A stretch of 64,000 nucleotides of DNA from an uncultured Candidatus Saccharibacteria bacterium (GTDB taxonomy: Bacteria; Patescibacteriota; Saccharimonadia; Saccharimonadales; JAGQNJ01): positions 130,748-194,747 of the forward strand of contig CAZPAW010000002.1 in assembly GCA_964584895.1 (NCBI GenBank). Direction: 5' to 3'. Below the pieces are notes generated by a model. The model saw only the letters and a list, made by a program, of their open reading frames with translations. It was not told the DNA's origin and searched no databases. The position numbers and the translations under genes were made by a program. Shown one piece after another: positions 61,396 through 64,000 of this stretch (its first letter is position 1; each line of letters opens with the position of its first letter).

Positions 61396-61830
61396 TTATT
61401 TATACTGTTTTTTTCGGCGGCGTTTTAATTCGGCGACTCGAAGGCGAGTTTGACTACGATCTAGCAGGTTTTGAGCAGCATCTAACGAGACTTGATCTTT
61501 AGCCTCAGCACGGAGTTTTCTCGCGTCTTCAATTGCTTTTTGGGCTTCAGCGGCATTGATCTCGTCTGCATGATCGGCTTCATCGGCCAGCACCCTAATT
61601 TCGTTATCTATAATTTCTATGACCCCGCCATTAGTAGCGTAATGTTCCATCATGTCATCAGGCTCATTGGACTTACTCCTAATACTAATAACTCCAGGGC
61701 TGGCAATGCTAATCAGTGGCATATGATCTTTGAACACAGCTATTATACCCTGCGGGGTAGGCAATAATACTTCGTAAGCCTCATCAGAATATTTAACTCC
61801 GGCGAGCGTTACAAGCTGAAATTTTATCAT
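61396..61830 (-). CDS. atpC: F0F1 ATP synthase subunit epsilon
   Basis: Begins MIKFQLVTLAGVKYSDEAYEVLLPTPQGIIAVFKDHMPLIS... and has a helical C-terminal domain with a basic tail. Confidence 0.9.
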   Translation of the reverse strand: MIKFQLVTLAGVKYSDEAYEVLLPTPQGIIAVFKDHMPLISIASPGVISIRSKSNEPDDMMEHYATNGGVIEIIDNEIRVLADEADHADEINAAEAQKAIEDARKLRAEAKDQVSLDAAQNLLDRSQTRLRVAELKRRRKKQYK

Positions 61831-62057
61831 TCTTCTCCTCTGATAATATTTGACCCAATATCTGGGTCATCCGCATATGGCAAGCCCCATTCAACTTCTT
61901 CAGGTACGACTGTATCATTAAATTCTGCCATCTGTTCCAACAAGCCCAATCTCGCAGCTTCTTTAGCTGCAGCCAAATCTTCCGTAGTAAAACCCTCCGG
62001 TAAACCATTCACTATATTTCCAACACGCTTACCGATCTCTTCAGGTATAAATCCCAT
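61827..62057 (-). CDS. hypothetical acidic 76-aa protein encoded between atpD and atpC
   Basis: TAATG overlap with the atpD stop and ATGA overlap with the atpC start. SD GAGG 8 nt upstream. No motif recognised. Confidence 0.6.
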   Translation of the reverse strand: MGFIPEEIGKRVGNIVNGLPEGFTTEDLAAAKEAARLGLLEQMAEFNDTVVPEEVEWGLPYADDPDIGSNIIRGEE

Positions 62058-63463
62058 TATTTTACCTCGCTTATTGTGCCTTTCATATAAAAGGCGTTTT
62101 CTGATTTATCATCATGTTTGCCATCCAGAATCTCTCTAAATCCGATAATCGTATCTTTCAGGCTTACGTATTTACCAGGGTTACCAGTAAATTGCTCAGC
62201 CACAAAAAATGGTTGAGTCAAAAATCTCTGAATACGTCTAGCTCTTGATACTGTTTGTTTGTCGTCATCTGAAAGCTCTTCCATCCCAAGGATTGCGATA
62301 ATATCCTGAAGATCTTTGTATCTCTGTAAAATTCTTTGCACCTCTCGGGCAACTTCGTAATGTTCTTTACCAACAATTTCCGGATCAAGAATTGTCGAGC
62401 TAGAATCTAGTGGGTCAACAGCAGGGTAAAGCCCTTGCTCTGTCAGTCCTCGATTAAGCACGATTGTTGAATCAAGGTGAGCAAACGCTGTAGCTGGCGC
62501 CGGGTCAGTAAGGTCGTCAGCTGGCACATAGACCGCTTGCACTGATGTAATTGACCCAGTTTTTGTACTGGTAATACGTTCTTGTAATGCACCCATTTCC
62601 TGCGCTAAGTTTGGCTGATAGCCTACAGCTGATGGCATCCGACCAAGCAGTGCAGATACTTCTGATCCAGCCTGAGTAAACCTAAAGATATTATCAATAA
62701 ATAGCAATACATCTTTGCCTTCGTCACGAAAACCTTCGGCAATAGTCAGCCCAGACAATCCCACACGAAGACGTGCGCCCGGTGGTTCGTTCATCTGCCC
62801 AAATACGAGCGAGGTTTTATCTAGCACTCCGGATTCTTCCATCTCGTAATATAGATCGTTACCTTCACGAGTTCGCTCACCGACACCAGCAAAAACAGAA
62901 GTTCCGCCGTGTTCTTTGGCAATGTTGTTAATCAGCTCTGTAATAAGCACGGTTTTACCAACACCGGCTCCACCAAATAACCCAACCTTACCGCCTTTTG
63001 TGATTGGTGATATGAGGTCAATTACCTTAATGCCGGTTTCAAGAATTTCTGTTTCACCAGATTGCTCAGAAAGGGCAGGGGGCGCACGATGAATCGGTGC
63101 AGTCTTGCTCGATACCACTTTTTTACCATCAATCGGCTCGCCTACAACATTAAACATTCGACCAAGCGTATCCTTACCTATTGGCACGCTTATTGGCGCA
63201 CCGGTATCGATAACCTTTACGCCACGCTCTAATCCATCAGTAGAGCTAAGCGAAATCGCTCTAATACTGGCCTCGCTAAGGTGTTGGGCAACTTCTAGCA
63301 CAATATTGTTGCCATTAATATCAATCGTTAGGGCATTGTATATTGCCGGTAGTTTGCCTTCGCCAAAATCAACATCAACTACAACACCAACCACCTGGGT
63401 TATTCGCCCAACATTATGCGCTGTTGACTGTTTTTTACTTATTGTTTTTTCTGCTGTTGCCAT
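62057..63463 (-). CDS. atpD: F0F1 ATP synthase subunit beta
   Basis: Contains ...[18 protein letters not shown]... and ...[28 protein letters not shown].... Confidence 0.98.
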
Positions 63464-63481
63464 CTGTTCTCCTATTATAAC

Positions 63482-63691
63482 TTAATCTAATGTATTAACT
63501 TCTTCTGTTTTTGGAAGCGCAATCGATCCAATATTACGAAAAGTATTAACTATGGTATCTTTAGCAACCAACAAAACCCATTCGGCTGCGCTAAAGTCTA
63601 AATGTTGTCTTCCAGTTTCTTCTTCCCAGCCAGTCGAGGATATTCCTGTAACTCTTTCTCCATATTCAAAAAGCTTATCAAATGATATCAT
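63482..63691 (-). CDS. hypothetical acidic 69-aa protein immediately upstream of atpD
   Basis: SD GGGAG 8 nt upstream. ATGA overlap with the preceding ORF. Ends 18 nt before atpD. Confidence 0.55.
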   Translation of the reverse strand: MISFDKLFEYGERVTGISSTGWEEETGRQHLDFSAAEWVLLVAKDTIVNTFRNIGSIALPKTEEVNTLD

Positions 63692-64000
63692 CTCATATTC
63701 TCCCGAGTTACTGGCAATTGATTTCCGTCAGGATGCTCCCAGCGATATACTTTAACTGGATCATCAATTACTTGAATTTCGGGTAAACCAGCAAGTCTAC
63801 CCAAATAATCTTCATGTCCAAGAAAAAAAGTCCGATGAATTGTCTCGCTCTCAGTCGCTCTACCTAGTAAAAAAGTAACAGCTTGACTAATAGGTTCTTG
63901 AGCTACGACAAGCAATTCTTTTTGAAAAGCAAACTCATCCCGCATTAATCCAGAACAGTGATTTGCTTCAATCTGTTCGCGTGATTCTTTGTGGCCATGA
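63688..64000 (-). CDS. hypothetical protein, possibly 5'-truncated by the window edge
   Basis: The minus-strand frame stays open from 63688 to the window end (...HGHKESREQIEANHCSGLMRDEFAFQ...). An internal Met lies at 63945. It does not resemble AtpG, which would be expected here. Confidence 0.5.
   Translation of the reverse strand, partial: HGHKESREQIEANHCSGLMRDEFAFQKELLVVAQEPISQAVTFLLGRATESETIHRTFFLGHEDYLGRLAGLPEIQVIDDPVKVYRWEHPDGNQLPVTRENMR

Follow-up and report, generated by a model that had tools for sequence, protein, structure and literature searches.

Small acidic ORFs with rapid turnover at the F1 junctions of Saccharibacteria ATP synthase operons

Few gene arrangements in bacteria are as strongly conserved as the atp operon, which encodes the ATP synthase. 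Here, we investigated a 64,000-nucleotide (nt) stretch of an uncultured Candidatus Saccharibacteria genome (GenBank assembly GCA_964584895.1, contig CAZPAW010000002.1, positions 130,748 to 194,747; called the window throughout), at the end of which the genes for the F1 beta and epsilon subunits, atpD and atpC, sit among small open reading frames (ORFs) joined to them by overlapping stop and start codons. Such intercalated ORFs, called inserts below, are widespread in the phylum, biased toward the F1 side of the atp operon, hypervariable, and gained and lost as exact units. We lean, with slightly better than even confidence, toward reading them as fast-turnover, dispensable, lineage-restricted accessory genes for small, acidic, soluble proteins, lodged in the coupled junctions of a canonical operon.

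The canonical F1Fo operon, atp(I)BEFHAGDC, has the gene order that this lineage shares, and it contains no extra ORFs. The Saccharibacteria inserts are not atpI-like, as they are soluble, acidic, and located on the F1 side. Complete H+-type F1Fo clusters have been reported in Saccharibacteria, against a background of fermentation (PMC9296517), and our literature search found no description of intercalated ORFs in their atp operons.

The coupled atp locus and its strain variants

The features at the window end, all on the minus strand, are listed below, beginning with the genes and followed by the Shine-Dalgarno (SD) motifs. Lengths are in amino acids (aa), and pI is the isoelectric point.

61396-61830, minus: atpC, F1 epsilon, 144 aa (Pfam ATP-synt_DE_N PF02823, 6.5e-15), with a polybasic C-terminal tail (…AELKRRRKKQYK)
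61827-62057, minus: ORF76, 76 aa, acidic (pI 4.05), between atpD and atpC
62057-63463, minus: atpD, F1 beta, 468 aa (Pfam ATP-synt_ab PF00006, 6.1e-73)
63482-63691, minus: ORF69, acidic orphan of 69 aa (pI 4.5), between ORF169 and atpD
63688-64000, minus: edge ORF, the 3' 103 codons of ORF169, open to the window end
61835-61840, minus: GAGGAG, SD motif for atpC, within the last ORF76 codons (…RGEE)
62065-62068, minus: GAGG, SD motif for ORF76, within the conserved atpD 3' end (…ISEVK)
63469-63473, minus: AGGAG, SD motif for atpD, within the 18-nt spacer between ORF69 and atpD
63700-63704, minus: GGGAG, SD motif for ORF69, within the ORF169 3' end

The two F1 genes are clearly identified as ordinary members of their families. 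AtpD matches PF02874 (ATP-synt_ab_N; 3.7e-19) and PF22919 (ATP-synt_VA_C; 1.5e-17) in addition to PF00006, carries the P-loop GGAGVGKT in its translation, and is 77-90% identical to the AtpD of 80 genomes that each represent a species and almost all bear the label Saccharibacteria or Saccharimonadales. AtpC matches PF02823, with the helical-domain family PF00401 weak at 0.026, under the cutoff. ORF76, ORF69, and the edge ORF gave zero Pfam matches at E ≤ 1.

The four genes and the edge ORF are tightly joined. The TAA of atpD and the ATG of ORF76 share one base (TAATG), and atpC lies downstream of atpD with ORF76 intervening. The TGA of ORF76 lies over the atpC ATG (ATGA at 61830-61827), and the TGA of the edge ORF lies over the ATG of ORF69 in the same way (ATGA). 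From the end of ORF69 to the atpD ATG there are 18 nt. The edge ORF has at least 103 codons in the window, or 85 aa counted from its first in-window ATG. An earlier model-made reading of the same letters (the sequence-only reading) had described this layout, with its overlaps, its spacer, and the GAGG and GGGAG motifs, and all of it was confirmed. Shared strand, overlaps or short gaps, and internal SD motifs are what translational coupling predicts, and with such tight coupling, production of the small proteins would keep pace with that of beta and epsilon, as that reading had supposed. ATGA-type coupling of beta and epsilon is described in other bacteria and in chloroplast atpB-atpE (PMC3241655). 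Promoter and terminator signals inside the locus were no higher than in shuffled sequence, and an Rfam scan was empty.

Exact look-ups of the window AtpD and of one further protein (P0001) returned no record. We extended the locus upstream through contigs found by protein searches with ORF169 and ORF69, several of them short assemblies. Two of these contigs, L089 and L090, are 100% identical to the window over the 774 nt of its terminal region that is covered, and a third, L084, is 99.4% identical. The gene order in L084 is atpH-atpA-ORF107-atpG-ORF169-ORF69-atpD-ORF76-atpC, and L089 has the same order plus ORF164 between atpG and ORF169. At full length, the edge ORF is 169 aa in L089 and L090 (P0004, also 169 aa, is 97% identical). 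Its start overlaps the atpG stop in L084 and comes after ORF164 in L089. The sequence-only reading was thus correct that the edge ORF is not AtpG-like, as ORF169 is a separate gene with atpG immediately upstream in L084. Its view that the small ORFs stand in place of the canonical atpG-atpD-atpC run was not borne out, because atpG lies just past the window edge. The A-G-D-C order is kept but adjacency is not, with two or three ORFs between atpG and atpD and one between atpD and atpC. With atpG found in the extending contigs, the order is canonical and ORFs are intercalated at all three F1 junctions.

ORF164 (164 aa; L089 2895-3389 versus L084 3667) differs between strains as a clean 492-nt indel bounded by ATGA on either side, in contigs that are otherwise 98-99% identical around it. 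The short form is backed by three contigs from different samples. The window allele probably carries ORF164, judging by its 100% identity to L089 where they overlap. ORF69 is in the same place in seven strain-level contigs. Between strains, ORF107 has six nonsynonymous changes and one synonymous change, a ratio of nonsynonymous to synonymous rates (dN/dS, or omega) of ~1.9; omega is 0.39 for ORF169, 0 for ORF69, 0.016 for atpA, and 0.024 for atpG, all from small counts. Among 5.8 billion clustered proteins, ORF69 returned only 100%-identical copies, and ORF169 returned no relative under 97% identity. An AlphaFold2 model of ORF169 from its single sequence had a mean predicted local distance difference test score (pLDDT) of 29.7 and was unusable.

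Occupancy and turnover of F1 junctions across relatives

We surveyed 80 related atp loci with a gap threshold of 120 nt, considering three F1 junctions: atpA to atpG (A>G), atpG to atpD (G>D), and atpD to atpC (D>C). Gaps of at least 120 nt were distributed as follows.

atpA to atpG: 21 of 71
atpG to atpD: 50 of 77
atpD to atpC: 40 of 80
atpB to atpE: 1 of 49
atpF to atpH: 1 of 62
atpH to atpA: 2 of 62
atpE to atpF: 10 of 51

The gaps between atpE and atpF and elsewhere on the F0 side are largely non-coding spacers. All three F1 junctions could be assessed in 71 operons. We called a junction occupied when coupled ORFs on the same strand filled it completely, which holds for one or more of the F1 junctions in 56 of the 71 (79%), with one to six extra ORFs each. 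Depending on the junction, the slot is empty in 35% (G>D) to 70% (A>G) of relatives. This lineage and all 80 relatives keep the B-E-F-H-A-G-D-C order. For example, the Pfam-verified operon of L001 reads atpB-E-F-H-A-[2 ORFs]-G-[2 ORFs]-D-[1 ORF]-C, with ORFs unrelated to those of the window. Checking synteny in relatives, which the sequence-only reading had advised, showed that the junctions are widely occupied and the occupants mostly unrelated. As a separate observation, L073 (operon at 3449-12525) has inserts even at the F0 junctions atpF>atpH and atpH>atpA, and its six F1-side inserts are matched in number by just one other surveyed genome.

The F1-side gaps (n = 110) have a mean ORF coverage of 98.6% on the sense strand versus 0.63 antisense, and coverage reaches at least 90% in 107 of them on the sense strand versus 20 antisense. 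The upstream stop codon is overlapped by 4 or 1 nt at 104 of 130 insert starts. Inserts are preceded by an SD motif that belongs to the conserved coding sequence at the 3' end of atpG, atpD, or atpA, and in relatives the atpD 3' end (AAGGAGGT / AGCGAGGT…TAATG) precedes whatever gene comes next. The 3' ends of the inserts generally consist of G/E-rich codons bearing the SD motif of the following gene.

Base composition and charge also distinguish the inserts. GC content at first and second codon positions (GC1/GC2) is 0.594/0.401 in inserts versus 0.597/0.403 in atpA, atpG, and atpD. These figures, along with third-position GC (GC3), were used instead of a codon-model frame test (126/127), which is partly circular owing to stops in the other frames. 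Inserts have a median pI of 4.7, with 79% of them below pI 5.5. The share below 5.5 is 21% among long ORFs of these loci and 6.5% among chance nested ORFs of comparable length, for which the median pI is 10.1. The acidic bias together with coding-type GC1/GC2 implies that the product itself is selected, at a minimum for being soluble or harmless. The inserts are genuine coding sequence. That they are instead chance open frames or annotation artefacts in enlarged intergenic spacers would agree with their having no database annotations or names and with the shortage of homologues for most of them. However, such frames would not tile the gaps so exactly, overlap their neighbors with this geometry, differ so strongly in acidity from chance ORFs, include a family as conserved as that of ORF76 (below), or be called by gene callers in independent assemblies, and this explanation is effectively refuted.

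A different proposal is that the inserts are pure spacer or relay ORFs, kept open just for coupling and for continuity of transcription with translation, with functionless products. It would account for extreme sequence variability alongside strictly kept openness and junction geometry, for the between-strain dN/dS of ORF107 and ORF169 (small counts, as above), for the low confidence or disorder of the AlphaFold2 models, and for a GC3 below that of the flanking atp genes (0.371 in inserts versus 0.474). It does not account for the ORF76 family, with dN/dS of 0.1-0.3 and invariant G, N, P, F, and W residues, nor for family pairs in relatives, where dN/dS is 0.05-0.5 wherever dS could be estimated (one weakly aligned pair gave 1.19; dS is saturated). 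The acidic bias and coding GC1/GC2 are also the opposite of what chance frames show. We therefore consider pure spacers quite improbable.

The contents of the slots change rapidly. A tblastn search of the three window ORFs against the 80 related loci gave zero matches; we dropped the reading that the ORFs are simply absent in relatives, since the same slots hold other ORFs. By blastp at 1e-3, 101 of 130 inserts are singletons. An apparent family at both A>G and G>D proved an over-reading, as it depends on a single match with E=8e-4. Between genomes with AtpD at least 92% identical, occupancy agrees in only ~50-57% of pairs, and where both slots are filled at 90-95% identity, the occupants are mostly non-homologous. 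ORF76 is still 51-53% identical where AtpD is 85-89% identical, which speaks for replacement of slot occupants in addition to divergence.

Few occupants could be named. Pfam matches were found in 4 of 133 inserts. Three are 23S_rRNA_IVP genes (PHROG "Avd of DGR", diversity-generating retroelement; best 2.9e-35) in the D>C slot, at L005 3963-4337, L031 1915-2310, and L076 3617-4009. The fourth is a PIN toxin (4.7e-13), accompanied by a small upstream partner, in the D>C slot of L061 (11387-12103). In L007 (2281-8689), atpD and atpC lie 6.4 kb apart with unrelated genes between them, first a 113-aa orphan on the same strand and then, on the opposite strand, genes for a histidine kinase and an Ig-domain protein of 1220 aa. 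Expression of epsilon must be independent there. An origin in anti-phage defence or phage was rejected, as PADLOC on the inserts gave one marginal match and nothing convincing, and PHROGs matched only the Avd-like trio. Origin by duplication or frame-shift of neighboring genes was likewise rejected, as blastn and tblastx gave self matches only.

These data also bear on whether the inserts are actively mobile selfish elements, such as homing or addiction cassettes, aimed at operon junctions. The patchy distribution, the clean ATGA-to-ATGA presence or absence of ORF164 between strains, and the Avd-like genes and PIN pair in the D>C slot would all suit such elements. Nevertheless, we found no integrase, transposase, endonuclease, or terminal repeats, and the ORFs are too small to encode mobility. 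The window and 1.6 Mb of flanking sequence hold no extra copies, PADLOC and PHROG add nothing to the Avd-like trio, and families stay at one junction, the sole cross-junction link being the weak match already mentioned. Active mobility is thus very unlikely. The sequence-only reading also offered a looser alternative, in which insertions take advantage of a strongly expressed operon, and much of the comparative evidence agrees with it.

ORF76 and possible F1 partners

ORF76 is the window insert with a recognizable family. Two homologues with 63-67% identity occupy the same atpD-atpC slot, and only seven clusters emerged when 1.84 billion representatives were searched with a profile. The family core is IDPxxLGKxVGNIVNGLPE…EAARLGLL…FDETVVPEExxWGLP, with invariant G, N, P, F, and W residues across clusters that are ~50% identical. 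L091 and L092, whose AtpD are 88.6% and 84.7% identical to that of the window, have distant members that could still be placed, again between atpD and atpC. The family holds this position in every sequenced context examined, at AtpD identities of 85-100%. Its dN/dS is 0.10-0.30, with dN ~4-14x that of atpD, values that are approximate since dS is saturated. AlphaFold2 predicts helices at residues 5-16 and 25-49 plus a disordered acidic tail (pLDDT 62.7), and neither Foldseek nor PDB searches found relatives. Applied to the inserts, the ORF76 profile recovered three more D>C ORFs, in L030 (1.3e-6) and, via the EExxWGVP tail, in L008 and L024 (both 0.004). ORF76 is subject to purifying selection on a function of its own; in view of the fixed position, F1 or epsilon may or may not have a part in that function. 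As a small family with fixed position and a dN/dS of 0.1-0.3, it is a legitimate candidate for an ATP-synthase partner.

A possible target for an acidic protein is the epsilon tail. The AtpC tail is basic in 75 of 75 relatives (…VRLQVAGLKRRRRR-like; net charge +3 to +9 over the last 25 residues) and lies at 61396-61440 in the window. Tail charge is 6.25 with a D>C insert versus 5.49 without (p=8e-4), a small difference that is confounded by phylogeny.

The small ORFs might be lineage-specific accessory, assembly, or regulatory partners of F1, produced together with alpha, gamma, beta, and epsilon, for instance as acidic proteins that bind the polybasic epsilon tail and tune inhibition of ATP hydrolysis. 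In favor of this, inserts sit at F1 junctions and are nearly absent from the F0 side, the sampled flanks hold no paralogues outside atp operons, the ORF76 family is fixed between atpD and atpC with conserved motifs, its tail motif occurs in D>C ORFs only, and uniformly acidic ORFs face uniformly polybasic tails that are slightly more so beside a D>C ORF. However, the F1 subunits are 77-100% conserved, yet the occupants are mostly unrelated and are missing from 35-70% of genomes. ORF69 and ORF169 are species-level orphans, ORF107 changes mainly at non-synonymous sites between strains (six versus one), and one whole ORF is present or absent between strains. Slots of relatives hold genes like those of 23S rRNA intervening sequences (IVS) and Avd, or PIN toxin genes, and an ORF of the same kind sits between rplK and rplA (below). 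The epsilon-tail correlation is small and phylogeny-confounded, and nothing in Pfam, PDB, or Foldseek resembles known ATP-synthase regulators or assembly factors. We consider F1 partnership as a general explanation rather unlikely.

Known small regulators and assembly factors of F-type ATP synthases include the epsilon C-terminal domain, alpha-proteobacterial zeta, mitochondrial IF1, cyanobacterial AtpTheta, Atp11/Atp12, and AtpI/AtpQ/AtpR. Like the inserts, they are small and potentially co-expressed with F1, as well as mutually non-homologous and clade-restricted. They differ in that they are conserved within their clades and are not known to be encoded between F1 genes, and AtpI, AtpQ, and AtpR are membrane proteins; the occupants of the Saccharibacteria slots, in contrast, change between species and even strains. 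The 133 inserts matched no ATP-synthase family in Pfam (IF1, zeta/DUF1476, Atp11, Atp12, AtpI), AtpTheta being perhaps unrepresented in the libraries, and PDB profile and Foldseek searches for likeness to known regulators were negative. The sequence-only proposal of novel accessory or inhibitory subunits has gained no positive evidence, considering the orphans, the empty or unrelated slots, and the rplK cases, while ORF76 stays a candidate. Novel ATP-synthase subunits are possible, and we do not favor them.

Other comparisons come closer. The 23S rRNA IVS proteins and Avd four-helix-bundle proteins (PF05635) are, like the inserts, products of small genes within highly expressed conserved loci, but window ORF76, ORF69, and ORF169 do not match this family. 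Nor do the window ORFs look like toxin-antitoxin genes, as they have no toxin-domain match. ORFan accessory genes, phage "morons," and flexible islets resemble the inserts in being lineage-restricted, quickly turned over, without homologues, and placed between conserved genes. Morons carry their own promoter and terminator, whereas the inserts show neither above chance level; they instead form links in the translational coupling chain of an essential operon and share a strong acidic bias. The closest concept is orphan accessory genes between conserved core genes, unusual here for exact integration into coupling, acidity, and site preference.

Ribosomal-protein loci and the favored reading

ORFs of the same kind are not confined to the atp operon. 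The secE-nusG-rplK-rplA cluster of the window holds two intercalated orphan ORFs, as listed below.

25623-26165, plus: nusG
26180-26443, plus: ORF87, 87 aa, no Pfam match
26568-26990, plus: rplK
26997-27383, plus: ORF128, 128 aa, acidic, no Pfam match
27397-28416, plus: rplA

ORF128 starts 6 nt past the rplK stop and ends 13 nt short of rplA. A same-strand ORF directly follows rplK in ~30 of 57 metagenomic relatives. These rplK-adjacent ORFs are singletons in 34 of 35 cases, with a median pI of 4.67, and none resembles the atp inserts or ORF128 of the window. Since inserts are common in the phylum, differ rapidly from genome to genome, and have counterparts in a ribosomal-protein operon, a role specific to the ATP synthase is not the likeliest reading.

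Several other features of the window were noted. In the 339-aa ribosomal protein L1 encoded by rplA, the Pfam L1 domain does not begin until residue 141, and nearly all 57 relatives have such an N-terminal extension, of ~100-150 aa or, at a few loci, less. An ORF at 997-1494 (plus) encodes a putative L23, assigned by position, of 165 aa with a Thr/Ser-rich N-terminus, where L23 is usually ~100 aa. Next to atpC, a 120-aa orphan lies on the opposite strand (61032-61394, plus), and beyond it is a gene for a ~300-aa protein without a Pfam match (60026-60997, minus), homologues of which, at 46% identity, lie 3' of atpC in two or three of the 80 relatives. Contig L084 loses synteny with the window exactly at the atpC stop.

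The mechanism we propose for the accessory genes is a relay. An insert would start on or near the upstream stop codon, using the SD motif within the conserved 3' end of the upstream gene. Its last codons would supply the SD motif of the next gene, and its stop would overlap or abut the next start. With this geometry, ribosomes would be handed on, and the operon would never be left untranslated. Only insertions and deletions that respect the stop-start junctions would survive, and selection would keep the products acidic and soluble. The products would be accessory rather than core ATP-synthase subunits.

Several observations weigh against this reading of the inserts as dispensable accessory genes. 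The near-total confinement of atp-operon inserts to F1 junctions would fit an F1-directed function, as would the 11 small insert families, which are junction-specific, the restriction of the EExxWG[VL]P tail motif to D>C ORFs among the junction classes, and the lack of insert paralogues in the rest of the window and in ~1.6 Mb of flanking sequence. The S10-spc-alpha operon of the window (365-14144) has no such ORFs, so that insertion into "any coupled operon" is too simple. We found no source or mobility mechanism for new inserts. The low GC3 of inserts could mean expression weaker than strict coupling implies, and relay translation is something we infer from sequence geometry only.

A bolder conjecture joins the two sets of loci. 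The inserts would form an undescribed class of operon-embedded, hypervariable acidic genes that enter and leave the F1 and rplK-rplA junctions as exact start-to-start units, and their products would be fast-evolving escorts or regulators delivered co-translationally to basic segments of the neighboring machine, for example the epsilon tail or the L1 extension. In this scheme, ORF76 would be the model case, acting on epsilon or beta to modulate the direction in which the ATP synthase runs in a host-dwelling fermenter. This conjecture is speculative, and we think it unlikely to hold.

For naming genes, our survey carries a warning: synteny alone is insufficient to annotate such ORFs as ATP-synthase subunits. 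The survey also yields a defined group of proteins in which to look for ATP-synthase regulation, in organisms with a poorly understood energy metabolism, and ORF76 is the first among them because it has a conserved family in a fixed position. Most atp operons in this phylum of ultra-small episymbionts carry fast-changing, precisely spliced-in genes at their F1 junctions, which bears on the way new genes are acquired, tolerated, and lost again in reduced genomes. Insertion into coupled operons in a way that respects their junctions may be a route for the birth or capture of orphan genes.

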